Shown piece by piece: positions 4,515-48,346 of a stretch of DNA of 64,000 nt. Location: IMG/VR virus record IMGVR_UViG_3300035183_001077. The stretch is one strand, 5' to 3'. The translations under genes were made by a program, and so were the position numbers. The DNA is from an uncultured virus (IMG/VR IMGVR_UViG_3300035183_001077) (lineage: Duplodnaviria > Heunggongvirae > Uroviricota > Caudoviricetes). The notes beneath the pieces were generated by a model. That model saw only the letters and a program-made list of their open reading frames with translations. It had not been told where the DNA came from and ran no database searches. Each line of letters begins with the position of its first letter. The stretch's first letter is position 1.

Positions 4515-4594
4515 AGCAGACTCCTTTTTGCCCCTCCCGGAAGGGGCGGTTTAATAAATAAGGCCACCTCCGGGATGGCGGCCTTTTACCAAAA

Positions 4595-4675
4595 TGGACC
4601 CGGTGGGAATCGAACCCACGTTCCCAGGACACCGCCGGGAAACCGGCGGGCCTGGGCTCCCCCCAGGTCGGGCCC
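4595..4675 (-). ncRNA. tmRNA tRNA-like-domain-like mini RNA (Ala acceptor, no anticodon loop, no tag ORF)
   Basis: Acceptor GGGCCCG/CGGGUCC with G3:U70 and A73; T arm GUGGG-UUCGAUU-CCCAC preceded by a 3-nt AAC linker; long stem capped by UUUC instead of an anticodon loop. Confidence 0.6.
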
Positions 4676-4677
4676 AG

Positions 4678-4749
4678 ACGCGGGGGCGGGATTTGAACCC
4701 GCGACCTCCAGGTTATGAGCCTGGCGAGCTACCGCTGCTCTACCCCGCA
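4678..4749 (-). tRNA. tRNA-Met(CAT), initiator-like; CCA not encoded
   Basis: Cloverleaf UGCGGGG-UA-GAGC...GCUC-G-CCAGG-CUCAUAA-CCUGG-AGGUC-GCGGG-UUCAAAU-CCCGC-CCCCGCG; A11:U24 and a weak 1:72 pair. Confidence 0.9.
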
Positions 4750-4846
4750 TTGAAGAAATGCGGAAAATTATTTGTAACTATTTTTTAATATTAAACTTGG
4801 TAAAATATAAAAAATAACGAAAGGGAAACACATAAAGCATGTTTGG

Positions 4847-9336: not shown

Positions 9337-9387
9337 GGTTTATATTTGTTTTACGTTTAATTTTTTAAAAATTAGGAAAATAATTTG

Positions 9388-9628
9388 TTGCCATGAAACT
9401 CTACTTCCTCTGGGGGGCCCGGGCTATCGGAGTCCGGTAGCCCCCCGCTGCAGCAGCAGACGTCATGGCGAGCTCCCCCGGTCAGGTTTTTCCGGCTTTT
9501 TGTCCTGGCCGGGGGAGTAGTTAAAAGAAAAGCCGGCGCCGCACGGCCTGTGCCCTGGGGGGTCGTGCGGTGGTGGGAGCCCGGGCAGACCCGTGTCCTC
9601 TAGCAATAGAGGGCACGGGGTTTTATTT
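9388..9628 (+). ncRNA. Structured GC-rich ncRNA with two pseudoknots and a terminal terminator
   Basis: Stems 9388-9396/9463-9471, 9473-9486/9504-9517 (loop 9492-9500 pairs with 9528-9536) and 9537-9548/9561-9572 (loop pairs with 9580-9587); G:U pairs only on + strand. Confidence 0.7.
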
Positions 9629-9632
9629 TTTT
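9590..9632 (+). terminator. Intrinsic terminator
   Basis: 13-bp stem with GCAA tetraloop followed by a T-rich tract. Confidence 0.8.
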
Positions 9633-9697
9633 AAATTTTGCAAAGAAAAGTTAAATTATTTTCCTAATTATTAAAAAAATTAGAAAAATAATTTAGT

Positions 9698-9892
9698 ATG
9701 GAACTCACTCCCAAAATCCGGGAGGAGGAGGTTGCCCTCCTCGTCATCCCGACCCGCTTGGAGTGGGTTACCTTGGATCCCGCGAGCGTTTCGTGCCCCG
9801 CTTGCGGGTATCCTCTGGCAGCCCGTCTCACCGACGAGGACTGGGACGGGGTCTGCCCGGACTGCAAGGCTAACTTGACAGAGATCATGTAA
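9698..9892 (+). CDS. Small zinc-ribbon protein, probably leaderless
   Basis: CPAC...CPDC; no RBS; ATG sits 6 nt after an AATAAT motif. Confidence 0.6.
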   Translation: MELTPKIREEEVALLVIPTRLEWVTLDPASVSCPACGYPLAARLTDEDWDGVCPDCKANLTEIM

Positions 9893-10612
9893 CAGGATCT
9901 CTGCAGGTGGTCTTGCAGCCGCCGATGCCGGTAAAGGCTTTCGGTAAAGGCAAGGATGCCTGAACCGAGGGCTGAAGCCGGATAAGGCGGGGGCCCACCC
10001 GGCAGCTGTCCCCTGGGTATGGCTGCCGGGAGTTCGCACAAATCCCAGGGCGGTCGGGGGAGGCCGGTTTCCGGTTCCGGCCTGTGAACCCGGCTGAAGG
10101 GCACGGCCACGCCCTTGCTGCACGGTAGCGGCCCCGGTTGGGTGGGCAGAGGCCGTGTCGAGTAAGCTGCAACCGGGCCCCACGGTGAGCCGACATAGCC
10201 GTGGGGAAACGGGTGTCGGCCCAGAGGCAGGATTGTGGGGTTTCCGCCTTAGCCCCACAGCCCTGGGTTAAAGATGGGCACAAAAAAAGGCGGCGCCTCC
10301 TGTCCCGTAGAGGCCGGGCACGGGCAGGAGGACGACTGGAAAACCCCATCCGGCCTGCCGACCCAGGGGAGGCTGGACGCCTCTTGGGTTACGGGGTCAG
10401 AGGCAGGCCACCGCGGTAGTTTGCCGCGGTCCCGGCTCCGCGCTGGGGCGGCAGCGCGGATAAATGACAGGCCGCCCTGGAGGCCTCTAACATGGAAGTG
10501 TCATAGAGGTACCTCCAGGGCCTGCGGAGACAGCCCCCGCAGGAAGGCCTGTCTAACCCGCCATCCCCCCGTCGTGAGACGCGGGGATGTGAGTCCATAG
10601 CTAGGACTCACC
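9893..10612 (+). ncRNA. Large (~700 nt) GC-rich structured RNA with tandem H-type pseudoknots
   Basis: At least four hairpins whose loops have 7-nt perfect complements just downstream; G:U pairs favour + strand; no credible ORF. Confidence 0.7.
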
Positions 10613-10674
10613 GCAATGTTTTTTAAATATTCAATCTCATTTAATTTATACATTTTACCACAAATAATTTCCTG

Positions 10675-10789: not shown

Positions 10790-10820
10790 ACCATCCCATC
10801 ACCGATAAAAGACAACGGTA

Positions 10821-11550
10821 GGGAAGGCATAAGATAGACGCTACTAATAATAGTGGAATAAAAGGCAGAAGATAGACTTATACAAGGAAGGAGATAGACC
10901 GTCGTAGAGATGGATATAATTCTAACATTAGTAAGGATAGTGAAATAAGAGGCAGAAGATAGACTAACAAATAGACGATTCTCACGTCCAAAAATTTAAA
11001 GGAAATAACTAAATGGACTGGCCTGACCTCCATACAAACTGGCGCTGTCTATCCGCCAGGGGCTGCGACTCTCGTGTATGTATCTGCATTGGGAGCAGAT
11101 ACTTACGAAGGAGCGGCTCGAATGGCTGTAAAGTCTCTGCCTTCAGGTCAGTGCCAGTCCATATAATAAAAACAATGGCAGAGGGTAGACGATTAGGGAT
11201 TACGTAGTAAGATACTACAGGAAAGACGTAAGTGTAAAGAAGGCAGAAGATAGACAATGCACAAAAGGAGACACTATAAAAGTGAATGTAAAGAAGGCAG
11301 AGGATAGACAGTGTGTCAAAAAGTATTATAAAAAGTAAGTATAAAGAAGGCAGGAGATAGACTATAATCTCAAAGGTAAAGAAGGCAGAGGATAGACGGC
11401 AACCCTGCTGTCGGTAGAAGAGGGCAGAAGATAGACAGATGATTAGAAAGAAGGCAGATGATAGACAGAACACAACAAATGAATATAAAGAAGGCAGAAG
11501 ATAGACGGACGTGATAAACAATAAGTAAAAAAAGAAGGCAGAAGATAGAC
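10821..11550 (+). CRISPR. Atypical CRISPR-like array: 13 copies of a 19-nt repeat with irregular spacers, interrupted by a tracr-like RNA
   Basis: Consensus AAGAAGGCAGAAGATAGAC; copies end at 10839, 10877, 10899, 10964, 11190, 11255, 11309, 11362, 11397, 11436, 11466, 11506 and 11550; spacers are unique. Confidence 0.75.
11013..11162 (+). ncRNA. tracrRNA/scaffold-like RNA with split anti-repeat
   Basis: Closing stem 11013-11029/11145-11162; hairpin loop GTCTATC (11047-11053) complements repeat 3' GATAGAC; CTCTGCCTTC (11135-11144) complements repeat GAAGGCAGAG. Confidence 0.75.
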
Positions 11551-14788: not shown

Positions 14789-16156
14789 ATGACCGACCTA
14801 CCACTCATCAAGGTATCCCTTGATGAATTAAAAGTTATAAAGAAATATGAAGATTATAACGTGGGAACAAGTTCAGAAATTGTTAAAAATAACTACTTAT
14901 ATAGCGCTGGTTTGTTTGGCAATACTCACTCAGGTGCTAGTGAGCTTAGTATCTCAAAATATGACTTATCTACAAGAATGATAATCGCTATAATAACTTT
15001 TGATCTTGCACAAATATGTCCTAAACTGGCTTCCGTACTTTCCCACATACCAGGTTCGTTATACATAAAGTGGTTAGCTCCAGTCGACGGTGATGAGTTA
15101 TGGCTGATAGCAATTAGTACGGAAGTATTGTCCAATATCTTGTATACAACAAGTATTATAAAATTAAAAGCATCAGACCTTTCCATAATTGATATTTCAG
15201 AACGACAAATTGATGCCACGCCAGATAGGAACAATTTTGTTGCCATGACGTTTGGAAAAGCCAAATTAAAGCCGAAAAGTTGGTTTCATGGTATTCAATT
15301 AGAAATGAAACATATGAAATTTTGCCCATGCTACGATAGGTTAAGGACTACTTTCAATGTTCGTATTACAAATGGTCGCAGATACGTTGGTGGATTTGAT
15401 GAAGGATTGGATACTCCGGTATGGTTTGCCATAAGCTGCTGTAAGTATTATGACACATGCCTGTATGCTAGTATGGAGAATAGTAATTGTTATTTTGGCT
15501 GGGGAAAGAAGTGGTCTAGAGGCGGTACTAATATAGATAGATTATATACCGTCAAATTTAATGAAAACTTCTCCGTAGTTGAATTAAAACATGTTGACAT
15601 AGATGGTAAAATTATTAATGCATACCCTATATGGGATGTAAACTATTCTTTTTCCCATAACACTTTGATTTGTGTTAAAATGTACATTCCCAGATCTGGT
15701 ATAGAAATACTGGTCTTCGATGATGACGGTACTTTCGTTTATCAAATACCGATAAAGTTTATTATTGGTACGGACCATACTGGTACGTTCACTTGTATCT
15801 TTTCCGATGATCCAGTTAATAATTTTATATACTTCACTTGTTATAAAGAATATATATCACATGCTGTTTTAGGATATATAAGTTTTGACCACGATAGCAA
15901 AACAATTACAGTTCATGTTACCAATCCAATAAATACTGGTTATAACGAGTCAGATTATTTGGAGTGGGTCGATACTTACATACATCCTGAATATCTTTGC
16001 CTTACAGGCAAGTTCACTTATAAATCGCTTGACATACTGCTATTTCCCGTACAATGGTTGCACGATAATGTAATTAAAAGCGAAACTTTTGCAGCAGAAA
16101 GGTATGAATTTGATAAAAAGGAAATATATGAAGTACAGAAGAGCTGTGTATGCTGA
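14789..16156 (+). CDS. Tandem paralogue family member 1
   Basis: Shares SKYDL, MTFGKAKLKP, GRxYVGGF, PVWFAIxCC, LGYIxFDHD and FPVQWLHDN blocks with its neighbours. Confidence 0.85.
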   Translation: MTDLPLIKVSLDELKVIKKYEDYNVGTSSEIVKNNYLYSAGLFGNTHSGASELSISKYDLSTRMIIAIITFDLAQICPKLASVLSHIPGSLYIKWLAPVDGDELWLIAISTEVLSNILYTTSIIKLKASDLSIIDISERQIDATPDRNNFVAMTFGKAKLKPKSWFHGIQLEMKHMKFCPCYDRLRTTFNVRITNGRRYVGGFDEGLDTPVWFAISCCKYYDTCLYASMENSNCYFGWGKKWSRGGTNIDRLYTVKFNENFSVVELKHVDIDGKIINAYPIWDVNYSFSHNTLICVKMYIPRSGIEILVFDDDGTFVYQIPIKFIIGTDHTGTFTCIFSDDPVNNFIYFTCYKEYISHAVLGYISFDHDSKTITVHVTNPINTGYNESDYLEWVDTYIHPEYLCLTGKFTYKSLDILLFPVQWLHDNVIKSETFAAERYEFDKKEIYEVQKSCVC

Positions 16157-16177
16157 GAAATGAAACAAGGATAAACT

Positions 16178-17584
16178 ATGACGGATATACCTACTATCAG
16201 TATATCCCTCGGTGAATTAGGAATGGAAAGAGATTATCGCATCTACAATAAATGGCTCGGATCGTCAGAAATTATTGAAGGTAATTATTTATATGGTGCT
16301 GTTTTGTTCTATGATACGAACACTGGGAAAGGCAAATTTGTTATTTCAAAGTACGATTTATTTACAAAACTATTGGTGGCTATAAACGATTTTGATCCTG
16401 CACAAATATTTCCTAAATTAATGTTTGCTGCAGGTTGTGTCATACCAAGACTATTAACTCTAAATTGGCTTGTTTCAACTGATGACGAGTTAAGATTGAT
16501 AATATCAGCTGCATATACAACTTCATATGTAACAAACAACATTTTATGTATAAGTAGTGTTATAAGATTAAAAGCGTCAGACCTTTCCGTGATCGATGCT
16601 TCGGAACGGCAAATTGATATTACACCAAGCAATGGGAAATTCATTAACATGACTCTTGGCAAGACTAGATTAAAACCGGCAAGCTGGTTTAAAGATATTC
16701 GCCTGACAGTCGATAACATCGAATTATATCCGTGTCCTGATCAATTAAAAGCTACTTTCAACCTTACAACACTAAAAGGTCGCACGTTCGTTGGTGGGTA
16801 TAATGAGGAATTAAATGGTACGCCAGTATGGTTTGTTACCGATTGTTGCAACTATTATAGAGCGTGCGCGTATTTATATGCGAGCCCGGAGCTTAAGGGG
16901 TATTACTTTGGTTACAGAAGGGAACAACATAAGGACAGTGGTACAATCAGATTATATACCGTTGAATTTGATAAAGACTCCTCTACAGCCGGATTAAAAT
17001 ATATCGACATTGTTGATACTAGTATTCACTTAGACAGCAACTGGAATAGAAATTATCCACTTATAGATTGCAACAGCATGATTTTCGTAGGAAAATTTTC
17101 TTTCCAAGAATTGATAATACTAACCTTTTTTGATAAAGGTACAATAGTTTATAAAATACCAATAAAATACATTATTGGTGCCGAGACTGATCCTATTACT
17201 GCTTGGCATATCGACCGAATTACCTGGAATTTTTATTATGATTCGTTCAACTATTATATATATTTTGTGTGTTACGACGCTGAAGAATCCTTTGCTGTTT
17301 TAGGGTACATAAAACTTGATCATGACAGCAAAACGGCTAAGGTTTACATTACTAATAAGATAAATACCGGGCAATATAGGCCAGGCCATCAGAAGTTGCT
17401 CGACACATACATATGCCCAGAGTATCTTTATCTTACTCACAGTTATGCCCATAACAATTCGCTTATCTTAACGTTATTTCCTGTACAATGGTTGCACGAT
17501 AATATAGTTAGGAGTGAAACTTTCACAGCAGAAAAATATGAATTTGATAAAAAGAAAACGTATGAAGTGCTGAGGACCGAATGA
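16178..17584 (+). CDS. Tandem paralogue family member 2
   Basis: Same conserved blocks. Confidence 0.85.
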   Translation: MTDIPTISISLGELGMERDYRIYNKWLGSSEIIEGNYLYGAVLFYDTNTGKGKFVISKYDLFTKLLVAINDFDPAQIFPKLMFAAGCVIPRLLTLNWLVSTDDELRLIISAAYTTSYVTNNILCISSVIRLKASDLSVIDASERQIDITPSNGKFINMTLGKTRLKPASWFKDIRLTVDNIELYPCPDQLKATFNLTTLKGRTFVGGYNEELNGTPVWFVTDCCNYYRACAYLYASPELKGYYFGYRREQHKDSGTIRLYTVEFDKDSSTAGLKYIDIVDTSIHLDSNWNRNYPLIDCNSMIFVGKFSFQELIILTFFDKGTIVYKIPIKYIIGAETDPITAWHIDRITWNFYYDSFNYYIYFVCYDAEESFAVLGYIKLDHDSKTAKVYITNKINTGQYRPGHQKLLDTYICPEYLYLTHSYAHNNSLILTLFPVQWLHDNIVRSETFTAEKYEFDKKKTYEVLRTE

Positions 17585-18982
17585 ATGACAGATATAAGCC
17601 CGCCAAAAGTCATTGTATCTCTTGATGAATTGGGAATGGTAAAAAGTTACAGAGATGACAGTATGTTGGACGGGTCAAAAATTGTCAAAGGCAATTACTT
17701 ATATAGTGCCCATCTGTGCTATAACGAGAATACTGATAAAGTAGAGCTTGTTGTTTCAAAATACGATTTATCAGTAAAATTGCTGGTGTCTCTTGCAGTC
17801 ATTGATCTTACACAAAAATATGAATCATTACTTAAATGTTATGAACTAGGCGTAGTGAATGTAAAGTGGCTTACTCCAAGTCCTAATGATAGATTAGAGC
17901 TGATTATTACTTTTGCACGTAGAGGACAAATGTCAAATCCAACGTGTAATTTGTTGTGTGTAACAAAAATTGTAAAATTAAAAGAATCAGATTTTTCTGT
18001 GATTGATATATTAGAACGCCAGATTGATGTTGTACCGAATAAAGGAACGTTCATTAGCATGACCTTTGGTAAGGCCAAGTTAAAACCGGAAAATTGGTTT
18101 ACAGCTATTAGGCTCGCGCCAAGCGATCTGGTGGTGCATCCATCTCTTGACCAATTCCGAGCCACCTTCAATGTTAGAATGTCAAATGGTCGTACATATG
18201 TGGGCGGATTCAATGAAGGAGTTGGTAATCCAGTATGGTTTGCCATAAGTTGTTGTAATTACTTCGACACACGCTTATATGCAAATCTAACGTGCAATAA
18301 CCATTATTTTGGTTGGGGAATGAAGCATTATAAAGGTAACAATATAGGCAGATTGTACGCCGTTGATTTTGGTGAAAGTTTTTCTACTGTTGAATTGAAA
18401 TATACTGATACACGTGATAATAGTGATTTTATACCTTCTAGGTGGCTCAGATGTACGAATTACTCACTTTCATGTCGTCGCAGTATTGTTTGTGAAGAAG
18501 CATGTCCCATTAGCAAACCTACAACAATAATGGTTTTTTCCGACAAAGATGTAGCTGTTTATAAAATACCAACCAAAGATATTGCCGGTGATAATCATGC
18601 TAAAAGTATTTTGTGGAATTTTTACCATGATCCGTCCAACGATTTTATATACTTTGTTTGTTATGAATTCAGTGGACCAAACGCGGTTTTAGGGTATATA
18701 AATTTCGATCATGACAATAAAACAGCTAATGTTTATTATACCAATTTAATAGAAGCAAATGTTAATTATAGTAGTAGGCTAGGATATAAGGCTGTGGTTA
18801 ACAGATACATGTGCCCAGAATATATTTATTTGACAAACGATTTCATACAAGATTCGCGTTGCATAATATTGTTTCCCGTACAATGGTTATATGATAATAT
18901 AGCTGAAAGTAAAACTATTGCAGCAGAAGTATATGAATTCGATAAAAAAGAAGTATATAAAGCTCAGGAAATCCGTGCATAA
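17585..18982 (+). CDS. Tandem paralogue family member 3
   Basis: Same conserved blocks. Confidence 0.85.
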   Translation: MTDISPPKVIVSLDELGMVKSYRDDSMLDGSKIVKGNYLYSAHLCYNENTDKVELVVSKYDLSVKLLVSLAVIDLTQKYESLLKCYELGVVNVKWLTPSPNDRLELIITFARRGQMSNPTCNLLCVTKIVKLKESDFSVIDILERQIDVVPNKGTFISMTFGKAKLKPENWFTAIRLAPSDLVVHPSLDQFRATFNVRMSNGRTYVGGFNEGVGNPVWFAISCCNYFDTRLYANLTCNNHYFGWGMKHYKGNNIGRLYAVDFGESFSTVELKYTDTRDNSDFIPSRWLRCTNYSLSCRRSIVCEEACPISKPTTIMVFSDKDVAVYKIPTKDIAGDNHAKSILWNFYHDPSNDFIYFVCYEFSGPNAVLGYINFDHDNKTANVYYTNLIEANVNYSSRLGYKAVVNRYMCPEYIYLTNDFIQDSRCIILFPVQWLYDNIAESKTIAAEVYEFDKKEVYKAQEIRA

Positions 18983-18984
18983 GC

Positions 18985-20385
18985 ATGAGCAGCAGCAAAA
19001 CTATAACAGATCTACCGCTTGTAGAAGTATCTCTCGATGAATTAGGAGTAATGAAAAGTTGTGATGATTGTAATCGTAAAGAAGAATCAAGAATTATCAA
19101 AGGCAATTATGTATATAACGCTAGTTTTATTTATAATAACAAACATGGTGAGAGTGAGATCATTGTTTCAAAATACGACTTATCAATGAAATTGTTGTTA
19201 GCTGTTACGACTGTTAACCTTACACAAGTATTTGCTAGATTACTGTGCTGTAATGTCCTGTATACGTACCGTCTGGACTGGCTAGTTCCAGATACTGACA
19301 ATGAGTTGTGGCTGATAATACGCGTTCTAGATTATAAAGAACATTTACTTTCGGGCGCAATAAGCATTGTAAAACTAAAAGCATCAGACCTTTCCATAAT
19401 AGACATTTCAGAAAAGCAGGTTGATATTTCTCCAAACAGGGGAAATTTTGTTCCTATGACGTTCGGTAAAGCCAAATTAAAGCCAGAAAAGTGGTTCGAT
19501 AAGATTAAATTGTCATCGAGATATATGATACTGTACCCGTGTCATGATCAATTAATAGCTGTTTTTGATGTTAAGCTTTCAAATGGTCGCACATACGTTG
19601 GCGGTTTTAATGAGGGATCTGGTACTCCAGTATGGTTTGCTATTAATTGCTGTAATTATTTCGATACGTATATACATGCCAGTACGAAGCATAATAATTA
19701 TTATTTTGGCTGGGGAGGGGAAAAACGGTATGGAAGTAATGATACAGTCAGATTATACGCTGTTGAATTTAATGAAGAATTTTCCACAGCAGAATTAAAA
19801 TACCTTGATGCTGGTGATGATCTCACTATTGTCTTATCTCCTTATTGGCAGCGCGATGCTTATGTATTTACGCAGTGTAATAGCTTGATTTACGCTCAAT
19901 CACGTTTCGGTAGAGAGGGAATCGACGTAGTCATGATAACTTTTTGTGATAAAGATATAGTTGCTTATAAAATAACAGTAAAACGTGATATTGTTGATTT
20001 TGATAACAATAATCGAATTTATTGGAATTTTTATCATGATCCGTTTAAAGATTTTATATATTTTATATGTTGTGATCGCCTCGGCGGTTCAGGTATCGTT
20101 TTAGGATATATAAGCTTCGACCACGACAATAAAACGGTTACATTCCATACTACCAATACAATGTATACCAATAGTTCTGCACCCGATTACAGTGGACGGA
20201 TCAGAGCTTTTATGCACCCTGAGTATCTTTATTTCAGATCAGATCTCAAACAAGGTTCATATAATATAGCATTACTTCCTGCACAGTGGCTGCATGATAA
20301 TATAATTAAAAGTACAACAGTTACGGCGGAAAAATATGGATTCGATAAAAAGGAAACATATGAAGCTCAGGAAATCCGTGCATAA
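18985..20385 (+). CDS. Tandem paralogue family member 4
   Basis: Same conserved blocks; highly similar to member 5 at DNA level. Confidence 0.85.
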   Translation: MSSSKTITDLPLVEVSLDELGVMKSCDDCNRKEESRIIKGNYVYNASFIYNNKHGESEIIVSKYDLSMKLLLAVTTVNLTQVFARLLCCNVLYTYRLDWLVPDTDNELWLIIRVLDYKEHLLSGAISIVKLKASDLSIIDISEKQVDISPNRGNFVPMTFGKAKLKPEKWFDKIKLSSRYMILYPCHDQLIAVFDVKLSNGRTYVGGFNEGSGTPVWFAINCCNYFDTYIHASTKHNNYYFGWGGEKRYGSNDTVRLYAVEFNEEFSTAELKYLDAGDDLTIVLSPYWQRDAYVFTQCNSLIYAQSRFGREGIDVVMITFCDKDIVAYKITVKRDIVDFDNNNRIYWNFYHDPFKDFIYFICCDRLGGSGIVLGYISFDHDNKTVTFHTTNTMYTNSSAPDYSGRIRAFMHPEYLYFRSDLKQGSYNIALLPAQWLHDNIIKSTTVTAEKYGFDKKETYEAQEIRA

Positions 20386-20387
20386 GC

Positions 20388-21800
20388 ATGAGCAGCAGCA
20401 AAACTATGACAGATCTACCGCTTGTAGAAGTATCTCTCGATGAATCAGGAGTAGTGAAAGATCGTGATGGTTATTATAATTATCAGAACGAATCGAGAAT
20501 TATCAAAGGCAATTACTTATATAGCGCCAGTTTTGCTTATGATAACAAACATGGTGAGAGTGAGATCATTGTTTCAAAATACGACTTATCAATGAAATTG
20601 TTGTTAGCTGTTACAACCGTTAACCTTACACAAGTATTTGCTAGATTACTGTGCTGTGAGGTTCTGTATTCATACCATCTGAGCTGGTTGGTTCCAGATA
20701 ACAGTGATGAGTTGTGGTTGACAGCACGCATTCTAAATTACAAAACAGATTTAATTTCTGGTGTAGCGATCATCGTAAAATTAAAAGAGTCAGACCTTTC
20801 CGTAATCGACATTCCAGAAAAGCAGGTTGATATTTCTCCAAATAAGGGAAATTTCGTTCCTATGACGTTCGGTAAAGCCAAATTAGAGCCGGAAAAGTGG
20901 TTCGATAAGATTAAATTATCATTGCTAAATATGAGGCTGTACCCGTGGCATGATCAGTTGATAGCTGTTTTTGACGCTAAGCTTCTAAATGGCCGCGTAT
21001 ACGTTGGCGGTTTTAATGATGGATCTGGTACTCCAGTCTGGTTTGCTATTAACTGCTGTAATTATTTCGATATGTATATCCATGCCAGTACGAAAAATAA
21101 TAATTATTATTTTGGCTGGGGAGGAGAAAAGCTGTATGAAAGTAATGATACAGTCAGGTTATACGCTGTTGAATTTAACGAAAACTTTTCCACAGCAGAA
21201 TTAAAATATCTTGATGCTGGTGATGATCTCACTGTTGCCATATCTCCTCAATGGATACGCAGTAATCATGTACTTCCGCAATGCAATAGTTTAATTTGCA
21301 CTCGATCACGTTTTGGTAAAGAAAACGACGCAGTTATGATAACTTTTTGTGATAAAGATATAGTTGCTTATAAAATAAAAATGGAACGTGATATTGTTGA
21401 TTTCGTTAACGGTAATGAAGTTGGTTGGAATTTTTATCATGATCCATTTAAAGGTTTTATATATTTCATATGTCGTGAGTATATCAGCGGTTATCGTTAC
21501 AATAAAGGTGGAAAAAAGCCAGGTTTCGTTTTAGGATATATAAGCTTCGACCACGACAATAAAACGGTTACATTCCATACTACCAATACAATGTATACCG
21601 GTAGTTCTGGACCCGGTTACAATATATTGATTGAATCTTTCATGCATCCTGAGTACCTTTATTTCAGATCAGATCACAAACAAGGTTCACTTAATATAGC
21701 ATTGTTTCCTACACAATGGCTGCATGATAACATAGTTAAAAGTACAACAGTTACGGCGGAAAGATATGAATTCGATAAAAAAAAAAGGTGTATGAAATAA
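20388..21800 (+). CDS. Tandem paralogue family member 5
   Basis: Same conserved blocks. Confidence 0.85.
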   Translation: MSSSKTMTDLPLVEVSLDESGVVKDRDGYYNYQNESRIIKGNYLYSASFAYDNKHGESEIIVSKYDLSMKLLLAVTTVNLTQVFARLLCCEVLYSYHLSWLVPDNSDELWLTARILNYKTDLISGVAIIVKLKESDLSVIDIPEKQVDISPNKGNFVPMTFGKAKLEPEKWFDKIKLSLLNMRLYPWHDQLIAVFDAKLLNGRVYVGGFNDGSGTPVWFAINCCNYFDMYIHASTKNNNYYFGWGGEKLYESNDTVRLYAVEFNENFSTAELKYLDAGDDLTVAISPQWIRSNHVLPQCNSLICTRSRFGKENDAVMITFCDKDIVAYKIKMERDIVDFVNGNEVGWNFYHDPFKGFIYFICREYISGYRYNKGGKKPGFVLGYISFDHDNKTVTFHTTNTMYTGSSGPGYNILIESFMHPEYLYFRSDHKQGSLNIALFPTQWLHDNIVKSTTVTAERYEFDKKKRCMK

Positions 21801-41950: not shown

Positions 41951-42757
41951 ATGCCAGAAAAAAGCATCAGAGTGAATAGTTTTGTATCGAATCTCATTAA
42001 AAATATTAAATTGGCCGCCACCGAGCCGCCAAATTACCGTCCCGCAGAAAACCCAGGCGTCAAATGTGGTACTTGTAAGCATTATGACAATGCTACTACT
42101 CTATGCACCAAATATGATACTGGTGTAAATGAAGGTTATGTTTGTGATGCGTTTGAACGTAAAAAAGTTAAATTAAGAGCTGTTACTGAAAGTAATGTAG
42201 AAAAACCTGACCTGTTATCTAAAGTAAGTGCAGTTTTATCTCAAGCTCAAGCAGGAATGATGCCGCCTCCTCCACCTGGTGGCGGTATGCCGCCAGGCGG
42301 TGCTCCGCCAATGGATCCCATGATGATGGCAGCTATGGGTGGCGGTGGAATGCCTCCTCCTGGTGGTGGAGGAATGCCCCCGCCTCCTCCAGGTGGAGGT
42401 TCTCCGTTAGACATGGCTTTAGCTGCACCTCCGCCGCCTGGCGGTGGTGGTGATATGGGTATGGGTGGTGGTATGCCTCCACCACCTTCTTCTACAGAAG
42501 AGCCTGGAAAAGAAGAAAAACCCAAGGAAGAAGAAAAATCAGAAAAGTCAACCGACGAAAAATTAGATGAATTGATTTCAAAACTTGACAGATTAATTGA
42601 ACTATTAGAAAAGAAAATGGCAGTTGATGAAAAAGGACCTGCCTCTACAGTTACTGAAGAAAAAACAGAAACTTCTCATGAACCAGTTGTTAAAGAAAAA
42701 ACTTCCAGTGCAAGCGATGATGTATTGAATCAAATTTTACAATTACTGAACGACTAG
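41951..42757 (+). CDS. Protein with a 4-Cys (HiPIP-like) domain, poly-Pro/Gly/Met linker and acidic coiled coil
   Basis: CGTCKHY...C...VCD; MPPPPPGGG repeats; start reassigned to ATG 41951. Confidence 0.65.
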   Translation: MPEKSIRVNSFVSNLIKNIKLAATEPPNYRPAENPGVKCGTCKHYDNATTLCTKYDTGVNEGYVCDAFERKKVKLRAVTESNVEKPDLLSKVSAVLSQAQAGMMPPPPPGGGMPPGGAPPMDPMMMAAMGGGGMPPPGGGGMPPPPPGGGSPLDMALAAPPPPGGGGDMGMGGGMPPPPSSTEEPGKEEKPKEEEKSEKSTDEKLDELISKLDRLIELLEKKMAVDEKGPASTVTEEKTETSHEPVVKEKTSSASDDVLNQILQLLND

Positions 42758-45700
42758 AGTAACCGGCTGATCCAAGGTTATCTTTCCTTCCATCAAATCT
42801 TTCATTAACTGCTTTTTATCATAATATACTTTTCGCGGTTTTGTTCTATCCTCTTTAGTATTAGCCGCCAGGAAAATACCGCCTGCAAAATCCTTAACTG
42901 GAATGTGCTGGGCTTCCATTGTTCTTGGATTAATAACGCCGCGGCTGGGTAATAGTTTCTCAACCGCTTCTAATCTGGCTTCTTCAGTAATAGGTACGTG
43001 AAAGTTCATCTTATCCCCATCAAAATCAGCGTTAAAACCAGTTAAAACCAGAGGATTCAGTTCCATTACATTACTTTTAGTAATTTTTGGCCAGAAAGCC
43101 AGCATACCAAATTTATGTAAAAGCGGTGCTCTATCAATAATGACTGGTCTGAATTTCATTTCTTCTAATAAAGCATTCTTTGCTGATTCATGTTTATTTT
43201 CTATCATTTCCATAGCTGTCTTCGGCGAAATTCCTTTCATAATTAATTTTCTTAAAATAAACGGTCGATACACTTCCCATAATGAATTTTCAGGTAAAGC
43301 AACTTCATCCAATTTAAGATATGGATTAGGAATAATAACAGACATTCCAACGATATCCACGGGCGTAGCCAATAATTGATACTGCATCATTGAATACTTC
43401 GGGCTACCATTGAATACATGATACAATAACCCTCTGATATTTCTATTGTTAGCACTCTTGCTCAATGGATTAGTCAATCCAACAGCAGCTTCCAAACCTT
43501 TATACATCGTTAATATTTCTTCAGATAAATCGCTTAGCTCACCACGTAAATTTTCATAATTTTTAATTGCTCTAATCAAATCTATATATAAATGATTAGC
43601 ATCGGCTATTATTAATGTTTCCTTCTTCTGTCCAGATAACATTGCCGGAGCAACAGGTCTGAAGATGGGTGGTACTACTGGTACTTTTGTCCACAACAAA
43701 TCTTTCAAAACTATATCATTATCAATTAAAGTACGCAAGAATATTAAATTTTCAATATATCTTGATTTTTCCTGAGGGTTAGAAGCTGAAAAATATAGTT
43801 CTTTCTGGTGATCGTATAATTTCTTCGCACTTACATTTTCAAGAAAAGCTTTCAAACCGTTCGGGCCGGAATAATATCTACTCACAAGGTTGGCTTTTTC
43901 TGGTTTGACGTAGTTTCCATTACTATCTACACCAGCCCGTCCTGATAAAATATCAAGAAATTCAGTTTCAGTCCAACCAAATAACTTGCGAATAAACGGA
44001 GCTACCATAGGATTTGGCAAAGGTACTGGCAATTTGATTGCTGTCCATAGCGTTCCATCAACTCCGCCTGTCAGTTTTTCATCAAATAGACCTCCAGGCA
44101 ACGGTTCAGCTTTCCCTTGAGAAGTAATCTTTAATGCTTTTTCAGACTCTATATACCTGCGATGTGCTAAAACATCTATATCCGTATCAGTTAGTGGAGA
44201 TAAAGACAAATAATCTCTTTTATCATTAATTTTTATTCCCATTCCTGTTAAGTATGCAAGAAACTTCTTATATACAAGTGGAGATTCAAGTGTAGGTAAC
44301 GGCAAGCCATAAATATAATTATGCCAGAATACATCATTTCTTTGTCCGCGGATTAATTTAATATCTCTCAAAATATTTACAGCACCGTGAGCAAGTAATC
44401 CGTAAGTATTTAATAGCCCTACACGTTTAGAGTTAGAAACTACAATCCAATCTGCCGTAATATAATTTGATTCCGGATCGATGCTGAAATCATACATATA
44501 TTCTGATTTGTAAATAGGATGATCCTGAGGCAAAACTTCCACACTTACAACTTCATCGGCATGAATGGTGATTTTATTCTTTTCTTTATCGGATAGATTA
44601 TCTTGATCAGAAACCGAAAACGAAGAAGAAACAGTTACAGGCTTACTGATAAAAATACCATAAATATTATTTTTCAATTGATATAAGGAAAAGCCTAAAC
44701 CTGAATCATTGATAAGATTCTGAGACAAATATCTAACACAATTCGCCAGCAAACTATCAGTTGATTGCTTATCGAAAATTAATTTATCTACTAAACATTG
44801 CTGTGCTAAACGACAGTAGTACTGCCTGTTATTGAACGCGTTTTCAAGTATTGTTAATATTCTTTTTTCACAATTTTTAAATTCAAGGGATAAGCATCCG
44901 GATTTAGTAAGTTTACCACAGAAAGCTACAAGCAAAGAAGCGAAGAAATAACTGGAGCTTACAGCATTAGTTATCTCATCATCTATATTAGTGATAATAC
45001 TTCTAAAATAGGAATTGAAATACCACGAAGGATTAAAGTGTAGTTTTACGGAATAAACTTTTTCATCTACTCGCATCTCATCGGGAGCTACAAACGGTTT
45101 CAAAACGGAATAAAGTAATTGTTTCAAATGATAATTTTGAATATTAAATTTCACAAAAATGCAATCCTTCTTCATTACTAAATCGAACAACAAGTACAAA
45201 ACTAAAATAGTAGATCTCTGGTAAAAATTAGGTTCGATAGTAGCAACAAGAAGCTGATCACCTTTCTTAATTTTCTCTGCCAGCTTGATTGTTCTATCAG
45301 CCAGCAGCATTTTATGATTTTTACTTACAACAACTTTCCTACCTTGAGCAGTTTTTATTTCTACAAAGAAGTTTTTGTTAGGAATGAGATAAGAAAACTT
45401 ACTCGATGGACGACGCAAAACAATTTCAGAATCATTAACAGCTACTAGAGCATCTTCGACATAATTGTCAGCAGAATGAAGATATTTAACAGTTTTAATG
45501 CCGCTGGCAGTCAGAACTTTTTCTGTAGCTGGTAAGCATCCATATTCACCACCTTTTGTGGGAGTATCTTCAATTGTATAGCCGCCAAAAGAACGACCAG
45601 ATAATGCATGTTCGCTGATAAACTTTAATTTCAAAAAATACCTATTTCCCAGCGATATGTTTGGTAATTTCTGACCAGTAACAGGATCTGTCAAGGTTGC

Positions 45701-48346
45701 TGTTAGCTTAACACCATGCTTTTTAGTCTCGTTCATGATGTAATTATATAAATCTGGGATTTTGTCAGGCTCTATATTAACCAAATATCTCTTACCAGTC
45801 TTTTCAGCTACAAGACCAAGCCATCCAGCCAGTAACAATGAAGGGTTACGACGGAACAAGGAAAGTGGATTTTCAATTATTTCTATTCTGCGTCCTTCTT
45901 CATCTACAGGCATTTGCTCGTCAGGAATAATAGCGGAAATAACACCTTTATCACCATATAAACCTGTAAGTTTATCACCAACCTGAGCTGGTCGTTCTGT
46001 TTTAATAAATACCTTTACGCCACCTTTATCGTCTTTAATAACTTTCAGAACTTCTCCAGAAGCATCTTCATCCCATGTCATAGAAACGTCAGAAGGCTTT
46101 AGTTTAAATTTTTTACCATGTATCCAGAAAATAGATTCTTCCGGATTAGACATCAATAAAACAATAGGATCACCTCTTTGTAATACCTGACCAGGTTTTA
46201 CAACACCAGTATCATCAAGCTTCTTTAATTGTTCTGCAGTATATTTTGTCGGGAAAATAGAAATAAATCTATTTTTATCTCTGATAATTGAAGAAGCATC
46301 ATAATGTTCAAAATTTAATAAATGTTGAGAAGTTAACTTTTTAGCTGCCGACTCGCTTATTACAAACGCATCTTCAGTTGTAAAACCACGGTAAGGTAGA
46401 TAGGCCGTTCTTAGATTAACACCTACAGCCAGTGTCCCATTTTTATCGGTAAAGTTAGAATAGGCCAGAAGATCTCCTTCTTTAACTTTATCGCCTTCTT
46501 TAACAGCTGGATATTGATAATAATAAGTTGCCCGATTGGATGGAAGATAATTAGCTAATTTATATTCCTTTGTTTCATTCCTGCCAGTTCGTATGATAAT
46601 GGATTTATCAGTAACTTTTTCAACTATCCCTTTTACATCGGACAGCAATACTTTACCATATCTTTTACCCATGTAGTCATACCAACCTTCCCTTTCATTA
46701 ATGGCATTCTGTACTAATGGAGCTTCTCTATGAACCAGTGGCACAGCCTGAGTAAGTGCTTTAGAACCCATAGCCAGACGATGGGCAAAACTGGCATTAA
46801 ATAACGGTAATAAAGCTACAGAAGGATGATGCATACGATAAAACGAAGGGAGAACATAATCAAGGTCTTTTTTATTAGCCAGACCAAGTTGTCTGTTTTT
46901 AATAGCCGGAACCATGTTTGATGGCCAATTTAAACTTTCAGGAAAACCTACAGTCTTATCAAGCAAGTCAATTGGCCTTACCCACTCATACCGTCCTGTT
47001 CTGTAGTTATAAAACAATCCATACATTTCTCTGCCAACTTTTATAACGCCAGACGTAGGTCTCATATCAACGCCGACATTCTTTTCAGGACTTCTAATTG
47101 GATCAATAAATCCAAGATAAGAAGCATGAATATTTCTGGCTTCCGCTGGAACAGCTTCTTCAGATTCAATACCGCCTCTACCCATAATGGAAATTCTTGT
47201 CGACAAATCATATAATTCAAATGGATTCACTTCATCAGGGTTTTGACCTAAACCACTGTTATAAAAGAAGTTCATAACATATTCTGTCATAAATCCAGAA
47301 GGTAAAACGTCTGAAACTGTTTTCCCTGGCGTAAAGCCAAGTTTTCTTAAATTGTATGCTATAGTCTGCGGTAACAGGTTGAAAGATTCAGCCAGCAAAT
47401 CTTCGGGGCCATATAATTGTTTAAATCCCAAATCATCTTTATCAATCGGCCTCCATCGCCGAGCATACATATTTCTTAGTTTCATAAACGTATCCAAGAC
47501 AACATTTTTATCCAACTTTTTTATAGGCGTTCCATAAATAGCTTTGGTAACTTCATGATCCAAGTCGGCTGACTTAATAATATGCTCTAAAACCTGATCT
47601 TGAGGAAGTTTGTCATAACCTGTCGGGGCAAAAGTTTTCCACTTTTCTATAAGTTTAGTCCACGACGCCGGGCCTGAAGTGTAGTTTTTATTAATTTCAT
47701 ATAATTCATCTCCCAGAGCATATCGTATTTGATCTTCGTTAAATCCCAACCATTTCAGCCAGGTATAACCTGATATCTGGCTTTGGCCAACTTTTACGAT
47801 AAACCTTCGTGTTCTGGGGTCAAAAATGTATTTATGAGAAAGTTCTGGTACGCCTGCATAGTTTACCATAGCTTCAGGCACTGAACCTCCAGAACCGAAA
47901 CGGAAATAAATACCTGGTTTCAAACGTAACTGAGAAGTAAGAGTATATTTGGTCCCATTTAAGACAAAAAACCCTTGTGGGAATGGATAAGGAATATGAG
48001 CGATTAATTTTTTTCTGTTGAAAATTACTTGATTATTTTCCAAATCGACAATCTTTACCCTTGCTCGTAATGGTATTGCAACACTTTTGTTATTAGCCAA
48101 AGCATCAAAAAGGGCATCGTCAGACGTATCAGGATCAGGACCAAATTCAGGTTCAGTAATATGAACCTGGTATTTATTAATAACAACAAAAGGCTGAGAA
48201 AATTTCGTATGGAAATGATTTAATACACTATTTTTAATTACTTGCCCAAGAACAGCAGTATCGTGTATGTCTCTAGCATCGGCAAAATTAAATGATCTAC
48301 GTAAGTAAGGAAGATATATTGTGGTCATACTTTTGCTCCGGTACAA
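42743..48346 (-). CDS. rpoB: RNA polymerase beta subunit fused to the N-terminal part of beta' (contains an intein)
   Basis: Beta motifs GFFVLNG, IDPIRSPE, MGSKALTQAVPL, EDAFVIS, GDKLTG.YGDKG; beta' motifs VPVVPPIFRP, DRAPLLHK and catalytic NADFDGD. Confidence 0.92.
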   Translation of the reverse strand: MYRSKSMTTIYLPYLRRSFNFADARDIHDTAVLGQVIKNSVLNHFHTKFSQPFVVINKYQVHITEPEFGPDPDTSDDALFDALANNKSVAIPLRARVKIVDLENNQVIFNRKKLIAHIPYPFPQGFFVLNGTKYTLTSQLRLKPGIYFRFGSGGSVPEAMVNYAGVPELSHKYIFDPRTRRFIVKVGQSQISGYTWLKWLGFNEDQIRYALGDELYEINKNYTSGPASWTKLIEKWKTFAPTGYDKLPQDQVLEHIIKSADLDHEVTKAIYGTPIKKLDKNVVLDTFMKLRNMYARRWRPIDKDDLGFKQLYGPEDLLAESFNLLPQTIAYNLRKLGFTPGKTVSDVLPSGFMTEYVMNFFYNSGLGQNPDEVNPFELYDLSTRISIMGRGGIESEEAVPAEARNIHASYLGFIDPIRSPEKNVGVDMRPTSGVIKVGREMYGLFYNYRTGRYEWVRPIDLLDKTVGFPESLNWPSNMVPAIKNRQLGLANKKDLDYVLPSFYRMHHPSVALLPLFNASFAHRLAMGSKALTQAVPLVHREAPLVQNAINEREGWYDYMGKRYGKVLLSDVKGIVEKVTDKSIIIRTGRNETKEYKLANYLPSNRATYYYQYPAVKEGDKVKEGDLLAYSNFTDKNGTLAVGVNLRTAYLPYRGFTTEDAFVISESAAKKLTSQHLLNFEHYDASSIIRDKNRFISIFPTKYTAEQLKKLDDTGVVKPGQVLQRGDPIVLLMSNPEESIFWIHGKKFKLKPSDVSMTWDEDASGEVLKVIKDDKGGVKVFIKTERPAQVGDKLTGLYGDKGVISAIIPDEQMPVDEEGRRIEIIENPLSLFRRNPSLLLAGWLGLVAEKTGKRYLVNIEPDKIPDLYNYIMNETKKHGVKLTATLTDPVTGQKLPNISLGNRYFLKLKFISEHALSGRSFGGYTIEDTPTKGGEYGCLPATEKVLTASGIKTVKYLHSADNYVEDALVAVNDSEIVLRRPSSKFSYLIPNKNFFVEIKTAQGRKVVVSKNHKMLLADRTIKLAEKIKKGDQLLVATIEPNFYQRSTILVLYLLFDLVMKKDCIFVKFNIQNYHLKQLLYSVLKPFVAPDEMRVDEKVYSVKLHFNPSWYFNSYFRSIITNIDDEITNAVSSSYFFASLLVAFCGKLTKSGCLSLEFKNCEKRILTILENAFNNRQYYCRLAQQCLVDKLIFDKQSTDSLLANCVRYLSQNLINDSGLGFSLYQLKNNIYGIFISKPVTVSSSFSVSDQDNLSDKEKNKITIHADEVVSVEVLPQDHPIYKSEYMYDFSIDPESNYITADWIVVSNSKRVGLLNTYGLLAHGAVNILRDIKLIRGQRNDVFWHNYIYGLPLPTLESPLVYKKFLAYLTGMGIKINDKRDYLSLSPLTDTDIDVLAHRRYIESEKALKITSQGKAEPLPGGLFDEKLTGGVDGTLWTAIKLPVPLPNPMVAPFIRKLFGWTETEFLDILSGRAGVDSNGNYVKPEKANLVSRYYSGPNGLKAFLENVSAKKLYDHQKELYFSASNPQEKSRYIENLIFLRTLIDNDIVLKDLLWTKVPVVPPIFRPVAPAMLSGQKKETLIIADANHLYIDLIRAIKNYENLRGELSDLSEEILTMYKGLEAAVGLTNPLSKSANNRNIRGLLYHVFNGSPKYSMMQYQLLATPVDIVGMSVIIPNPYLKLDEVALPENSLWEVYRPFILRKLIMKGISPKTAMEMIENKHESAKNALLEEMKFRPVIIDRAPLLHKFGMLAFWPKITKSNVMELNPLVLTGFNADFDGDKMNFHVPITEEARLEAVEKLLPSRGVINPRTMEAQHIPVKDFAGGIFLAANTKEDRTKPRKVYYDKKQLMKDLMEGKITLDQPVTLVVQ
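44432..45538 (-). mobile_element. Intein (369 aa) with degenerate LAGLIDADG-like region
   Basis: Begins CLPATEKV after KGGEYG; block B VSKNHKM; block F YMYDFSI; ends VVSN followed by S(+1)KRVG. Confidence 0.85.

Follow-up and report, generated by a model that had tools for sequence, protein, structure and literature searches.

RNAs that comprise the tRNA-like domain (TLD) of tmRNA and carry no tag have a phage precedent. Mycobacterium phage DS6A is listed as 'TLD only' in PMC4131195, where a similar molecule, whether chargeable or not, is described as a strong inhibitor of tmRNA, perhaps titrating SmpB. Of the 97,179 genes in the curated tmRNA database, according to PMC11915505, 9 are CDS-less and in standard order; that source also describes inhibition of the endogenous tmRNA in E. 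coli by the DS6A form. The RNA from DS6A was located in the DS6A record, in which it is unannotated.

The RNA reported here lies in a 64,000-nt stretch of DNA from an uncultured virus (IMG/VR IMGVR_UViG_3300035183_001077), the whole of which is referred to as the window. Its genes include two RNA polymerase subunits (one with an intein), a sigma factor, a DnaB helicase, a dCTP deaminase and a nucleotide kinase, and the window looks like part of a large phage. The same DNA is present in two microbial-mat runs, and a relative in a hot-spring run. A Planctomycetota host, guessed from the gene types, was unsupported, with one weak and broken match in 301 genomes.

Several other features of the window were recorded. 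In a 1867-aa ORF (42743–48346), a part resembling RNA polymerase beta is fused with an intein and with an N-terminal part resembling beta-prime; the remainder of beta-prime is a separate 647-aa gene. Five tandem genes of 455–470 aa (14789–21800) are visibly similar to one another; the one searched against Pfam and the two searched against PHROGs gave no match. The gene-free region 10800–11550 holds about 12 irregularly spaced copies of a GATAGAC-core motif, often AAGGCAGAAGATAGAC (the window as a whole has 15, counting both strands), and is possibly an origin or a protein-binding array. Two G+C-rich islands (62–65%, in a window of 37%) lie at 9383–9629 and 9695–10621, and no Rfam family was found in them at the gathering threshold. 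Inverted repeats of 26 nt, rich in A+T, lie on either side of the first (9361–9386 and 9653–9678); inside the second, ARAGORN calls a tRNA-Arg (10359–10452) to which Rfam gives no support.

The RNA gene occupies positions 4595–4675 of the minus strand, RNA positions 1–81 corresponding to window positions 4675–4595, and is separated by a 2-nt spacer from a tRNA-Met(CAU) gene on the same strand (4678–4749; called by ARAGORN, Rfam 66.5 bits), which ends at 4678. The earlier note on this DNA, which gave no strand, had described an 81-nt RNA 2 nt past the tRNA-Met, with the alanine determinants G1-G2-G3:U70 and A73, a T arm, an AAC connector and a long irregular stem replacing the anticodon arm, and had recognized in it the tmRNA tRNA-like-domain topology with alanine identity. 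The feature is confirmed as real, with all of the elements claimed for it present, and its topology fits the large covarying phage family described below.

The acceptor stem is closed over 7 bp (RNA 1–7 paired with 74–80); its 5' strand (4669–4675, 7/7 pairs with 4596–4602) supplies G1, G2 and G3 for the pairs G1-C72, G2-C71 and G3·U70 (tRNA numbering), while its 3' strand (4595–4602) carries U70 and the discriminator A73, CCA not being encoded. The D loop (RNA 8–19; 4657–4668) is a stemless, unpaired 12-nt segment made up of A8, a run of six G and a further stretch ending in AG, where host tmRNA has GA. It is followed by P2 (4623–4656), in which a 6-bp basal stem (RNA 20–25 with 48–53), a bulge and a 7-bp hairpin with a UUUC loop stand where pseudoknots and a tag frame would otherwise be; P2 closes after 34 nt, with pair probabilities at 37 °C of 0.83 for the basal stem and 1.0 for the hairpin. 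A 3-nt AAC connector (4620–4622; GAC in host tmRNA) leads into the T arm (4603–4619), which has a 5-bp stem and a UUCGAUU loop. All of these parts lie on the minus strand, and their order, a D loop with GG, P2, a 3-nt connector and the T arm, is the standard TLD order; an anticodon arm, pseudoknots and a tag reading frame are absent. The G+C content of the RNA is 74%, compared with 37% for the window.

On its far side the tRNA-Met is preceded by an A+T-rich leader with a weak sigma-70-like promoter match (4767–4794, minus strand; 9/12 matches; 3 such matches found vs 1.0 expected), and a terminator-like hairpin (4560–4585, minus strand), a consensus match only, lies 10 nt past the discriminator of the mini-tmRNA (4 in the region vs 1.3 expected in shuffles). 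The tRNA-Met is probably co-transcribed with the mini-tmRNA. Its A11:U24 pair and weak 1:72 pair make it probably initiator-like. Its first acceptor pair is U1·G72 and its discriminator is U, and a 7-bp hairpin between its opening bases and the leader (within 4678–4763) can form in competition with the acceptor stem.

With default settings ARAGORN called neither a tRNA nor a tmRNA at the 81-nt RNA, and Rfam gave no tRNA or tmRNA match to it at the gathering threshold; in this scoring check, which had been proposed beforehand, it does not behave as an ordinary tRNA or tmRNA. Below gathering, the T arm alone gives a weak Rfam tmRNA match (13.8 bits). Calls made by ARAGORN in the window at low threshold were dismissed as noise. 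The folding energy (z = –2.14, with 5 of 200 shuffles equally good) is weak evidence by itself. When the 500-nt region was shuffled 20,000 times, the architecture pattern occurred in none of the shuffles; this is a generous control, since the pattern was drawn up with this RNA in view. An alternative CCUGGG/CCCAGG hairpin, also suggested in the earlier note, is real and close in energy, but minor in the ensemble, where P2 is preferred to it at both 37 °C (0.83 vs 0.12) and 65 °C (0.53 vs 0.22).

To identify relatives, a degenerate architecture pattern was run against IMG/VR and matched at least 119 loci. Among the 119 viral matches listed, 102 (89 of them distinct) close all 4 acceptor and 3 T-stem pairs left free by the pattern; the other 17, among them full-tmRNA ends and some minis read with a one-base shift, were set aside. 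The 89 distinct sequences contain many two-sided pair changes (451 cells), which describe the family and do not test it, because these rows were chosen for pairing. The real test is the contrast in stem closure between viral matches and bacterial genomes: with a near-identical pattern, only 3 of the 120 matches listed from bacterial genomes were closed, and the matches were mostly 3' ends of full tmRNAs. These three closed sequences (L439:2171–2238, L460 and L468, the first on a 2.2-kb contig of a Gemmatimonadota MAG) are possibly prophage or misbinned phage DNA.

Scans blind to the acceptor were also made. In the GAC-type scan, 84 of the 119 loci listed had closed 7+5 stems, and all 73 distinct sequences carried G3·U70 and A73. 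The AAC scan gave 11 minis in the 115 loci listed, most of the others being ordinary tRNAs, and again all of the distinct minis (9/9) had both determinants. Such retention shows, as judged from sequence conservation, that alanine identity is under selection in the family. Pooling of three sets yielded at least 221 distinct phage-type sequences, with 12 nt as the modal length of the D loop, and tmRNAs of the TLD-only kind are thus common in phages. With the Rfam tmRNA model, 10 of 20 relatives scored above gathering, in whole-model matches of 66–84 nt.

A covariance model of the family was built without the window RNA, which nevertheless scored 51.6 bits over its full length (E = 1.6e-9), compared with 15.6 bits for the adjoining tRNA-Met and 58.2 bits for the DS6A RNA. 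Ordinary tRNAs with an alanine-like acceptor reached 25–31 bits, and the 3' ends of ten full tmRNAs 27–50 bits (best 49.7). Because such sequences can come close to the score of the window RNA, its membership rests on the score together with an acceptor and a P2 that are both closed in cis. By this combination the 81-nt RNA is, with high confidence, a mini-tmRNA.

Among cultured phages, Streptomyces phages LuckySocke (64.5 bits) and Shaeky (59.6 bits) carry mini-tmRNAs inside tRNA arrays (L487:1491–1568 and L488:1491–1569, respectively); neither copy is annotated, and both would be useful experimental models. Streptomyces phage GiJojo gave a blast match equal to that of LuckySocke. Weak model matches in QDWS359, BUDD, Nanosmite, XacN1, Sixama and BF have broken pairs and were not counted as minis, and a match in Gack is doubtful. 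A blastn search with the 81-nt RNA against cultured phages returned matches to the T arm only, and in an exact scan with the 3' 25 nt the 10 viral loci found were tRNAs, full or permuted tmRNAs and tRNA-like sequences, with a close relative in none. Related phage loci were not found in IMG/VR in searches with three single proteins of the window. In the literature searched, which took in part of the supplements of PMC10690425, no paper was found on the phage breadth of the mini-tmRNA or on the AG/AAC junction subtype discussed below; the 10,006 candidate viral RNAs described in PMC10690425 may include members of the family.

Given that no close relative was found in IMG/VR, that the six-G D loop is unlike those of all of the at least 221 relatives (none of which has even a five-G run in this region, and all of which are lower in G+C), and that a hand-drawn cloverleaf-like fold (–47.6 kcal/mol) equals the hand-drawn TLD fold (–47.1 kcal/mol) in energy, we considered whether this copy might be decaying or non-functional, or a rearranged relic of tRNA-Ala, with its stems kept by recent descent. 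We judge this improbable. Every one of the 7+6+7+5 pairs is intact, and the G+C content is 74% where the window has 37%; A8, the GG, the connector and the spacing are those of a TLD and not of a tRNA; and a pure relic would not need G3·U70 and A73, kept in 73/73 and 9/9 of the distinct sequences among the matches listed. In addition, a hot-spring contig from another study matches the leader (4749–4813) and the 3' end of the RNA (4561–4625) with a gap of 51 letters compared with 123 in the window, which suggests that this relative keeps the mini RNA without the tRNA-Met.

No SmpB was found among the window proteins searched (38 against Pfam and 48 against PHROGs), nor in any of 50 carrier virus records, mostly chosen for length, including the 18 that are at least 90% complete; an SmpB partner, if there is one, would therefore be the host's. 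Members of the RF-1/ArfB family were likewise found in 0 of the 50 records. Clustering of the 577 ORFs near 133 loci gave 263 clusters. Their representatives include terminases, portals, capsids, SSB and helicases, with no SmpB, release factor or integrase among them; neither an aminoacyl-transferase nor any other partner recurs there, and unrelated phage groups have no recurrent protein neighbour in common. Judging from these neighbourhoods, the mini-tmRNA gene is a stand-alone passenger, sometimes found among tRNAs, that would rely on host proteins. A full-length tmRNA occurs in 1 of the 50 carriers; one phage record (G039) was seen to hold both a full-length tmRNA and a mini-tmRNA.

The lack of a recurrent neighbour also bears on the suggestion, made in the earlier note, that the RNA is the acceptor piece of a split (two-piece) tmRNA with its tag-coding piece elsewhere. 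Permuted two-piece tmRNAs exist (PMC11915505), and the window does contain an unexplained G+C-rich structured region of 0.7–0.9 kb. However, both strands of P1 and of P2 lie in this one RNA, which leaves none over to pair with a second piece; sequence matches elsewhere in the window, on whichever strand, extend to 11 nt at most; and the permuted model RF04321 scores only 13 bits (E = 1.8). We therefore regard this suggestion as unsupported and very unlikely. Slighter still is the chance that the RNA is the remnant of an attP site, in a phage whose integration target is the host tmRNA gene. Integration of phages at tmRNA genes is known (PMC10865867), but an attP core carries the 3' part only, whereas the 81-nt RNA has both ends paired and its AAC end differs from the host GAC end; a tyrosine integrase is present in 2 of the 50 carriers and in none of the neighbour representatives, and DS6A itself is described as integrating at tRNA-Lys.

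The junction between the D loop and the connector distinguishes this copy. In full bacterial tmRNAs, a GAC connector stands behind a loop ending in YGA (GA/GAC) in 66 of 66 distinct sequences (from 108 calls, of which 7 permuted ones were set aside and the rest were duplicates). Within one phylum, a GAC-type end was found in 80 of 101 genomes, and an AAC match in 1 of 301, a doubtful one with a broken T stem. The 89 distinct phage minis listed divide into GA/GAC (45), AG/AAC (16), GA/AAC (6), AG/GAC (0) and other or unresolved junctions (22), counts that are not independent, as one marine clade supplies many of the AG/AAC rows. A metagenome scan forcing both AG and AAC gave 112 closed sequences among the 117 matches listed, 69 of them distinct. 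The window RNA belongs to this AG/AAC subtype, in which the junction change is paired (covarying); most of its AG/AAC relatives have a shorter, tRNA-like GG-NN-AG loop. In one set (set 1), a tRNA-Met lies near 6 of 30 AAC-type minis and 0 of 53 GAC-type minis. We do not claim a link, since these cases come mostly from one marine clade, and GAC-type minis near a tRNA-Met occur in 4 of 84 loci.

The junction lies at the SmpB interface. In the cryo-EM description of the E. coli complex (PMC8363625), Trp122 of SmpB sits in a pocket of A15, U17 and A334, and C18 and G19 are stacked, with G19 on a leucine patch of SmpB; the substitution G19C abolishes function. In place of U17, C18, G19 and the GAC connector, the window RNA has G, G, A and AAC, and the binding of SmpB is less certain for this copy because these D-loop and connector bases differ from those of host tmRNA. 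This assignment counts back from P2, in what we take to be the E. coli numbering; by it, A20 is replaced by G as well, and A334 is kept.

How the RNA acts can be proposed from these features. It would be transcribed together with the tRNA-Met, trimmed and provided with CCA by host enzymes, and, by way of G3·U70, aminoacylated with alanine by host AlaRS, as the selection on this mark suggests. That the alanine mark is so strictly retained speaks for the importance of charging, and a charged RNA travelling with EF-Tu and SmpB is for this reason the best reading. With host EF-Tu and host SmpB it would compete with full tmRNA, tying up SmpB, entering stalled ribosomes, or both. On a non-stop ribosome it could accept the nascent chain, the chain-acceptance step being described for tmRNA in PMC8012679, and supply no degradation tag, and the taking over of chains in this way would lessen the tagging and proteolysis of products made during infection. 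A decoy or altered-rescue role is plausible, and we hypothesize, with somewhat better than even confidence, that the RNA is charged with alanine, is a rival of host tmRNA for SmpB/EF-Tu and for stalled ribosomes, and thereby reduces tagging.

The rebuilt junction keeps alive a role independent of SmpB, in which an alanine-charged tRNA mimic would act as a decoy, either for EF-Tu or for those enzymes of host defence whose target is the tRNA acceptor end, or would donate alanine outside the ribosome. We hold this to be unlikely, though it is the main rival reading. The equivalents of U17, C18 and G19 are all changed, at a junction invariant in the 66/66 host tmRNAs; the loop of most AG/AAC relatives is tRNA-like; and alanine identity is nonetheless retained, in 9/9 of the acceptor-blind AAC minis among the matches listed. 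However, the paired swap keeps the junction purines and A334, as expected if the same fold is preserved, and the 263 neighbour representatives offer no recurring aminoacyl-transferase or other partner for such an activity.

Somewhat more speculative is the idea that the AG/AAC minis are a class of their own among alanine-charged tmRNA heads, a second one, specific to phages, in which the face for SmpB has been rebuilt. Such RNAs would work without SmpB, or else would enter stalled ribosomes with a changed affinity for it and release chains with one or a few template-free alanines. We regard this as rather doubtful; if true, phages would widely possess a means of rescuing ribosomes without a message, or of alanine tailing that overrides host tagging. 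As a natural G+C-rich junction mutant, this copy is suited to mapping the SmpB interface.

If the RNA competes with host tmRNA as we favour, many unrelated phages would manipulate trans-translation with an RNA. The action of a tag-less tmRNA on a stalled ribosome, a question that mitochondria raise as well, would then be open to experiment, as would the question of why phages care about ribosome rescue. Compared with the 9 standard-order CDS-less genes among the 97,179 of the curated tmRNA database, as given in PMC11915505, at least 221 distinct phage-type sequences were obtained here, mostly missed by default annotation.

Compared with known systems, the window RNA resembles tRNA-Ala in G3·U70, A73 and the T arm, but in the favoured fold it has no D stem, and it lacks a 7-nt anticodon loop with an alanine anticodon and has A at position 8. 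With bacterial tmRNA (RF00023) it shares the alanine acceptor, the GG in the D loop, P2, the 3-nt connector, the T arm and an equivalent of A334, and differs in having no pseudoknots or tag frame, in its junction (AG/AAC vs GA/GAC) and in scoring below the Rfam gathering threshold. Like the CDS-less mitochondrial tmRNA (RF02544) and the ~65-bp plastid tmRNAs of Mallomonadaceae described in PMC11915505, it is a tag-less tRNA-like domain only. According to that source, however, those forms are organellar and mostly permuted, whereas the window RNA is viral and unpermuted, and the mitochondrial form co-occurs with a nucleus-encoded SmpB, whereas no cognate SmpB was found in the 50 phage carrier records. 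The earlier note had rightly placed the RNA among tag-less tmRNA-like RNAs; closer than the protist mitochondria that it cited as a precedent is the DS6A 'TLD only' RNA (PMC4131195, PMC11915505).

The DS6A RNA (tmRNA Website tmID 11587) and the window RNA are both about 80 nt long and of standard order, with G3·U70, A73, a stemless D loop, a P2 closed by a hairpin and a T arm, and in both a tag frame is absent and CCA is not encoded. They differ in that DS6A has a host-like UCGAC loop end and a CAC connector, whereas the window RNA has GGGGGGAG and AAC; in that the window RNA is without the AAA-bulge hairpin of the family; and in that its gene follows a tRNA-Met and belongs to a large phage encoding RNA polymerase subunits of its own. 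The kind itself is thus already published in DS6A, and what differs in this copy is the AG/AAC variant of the junction.
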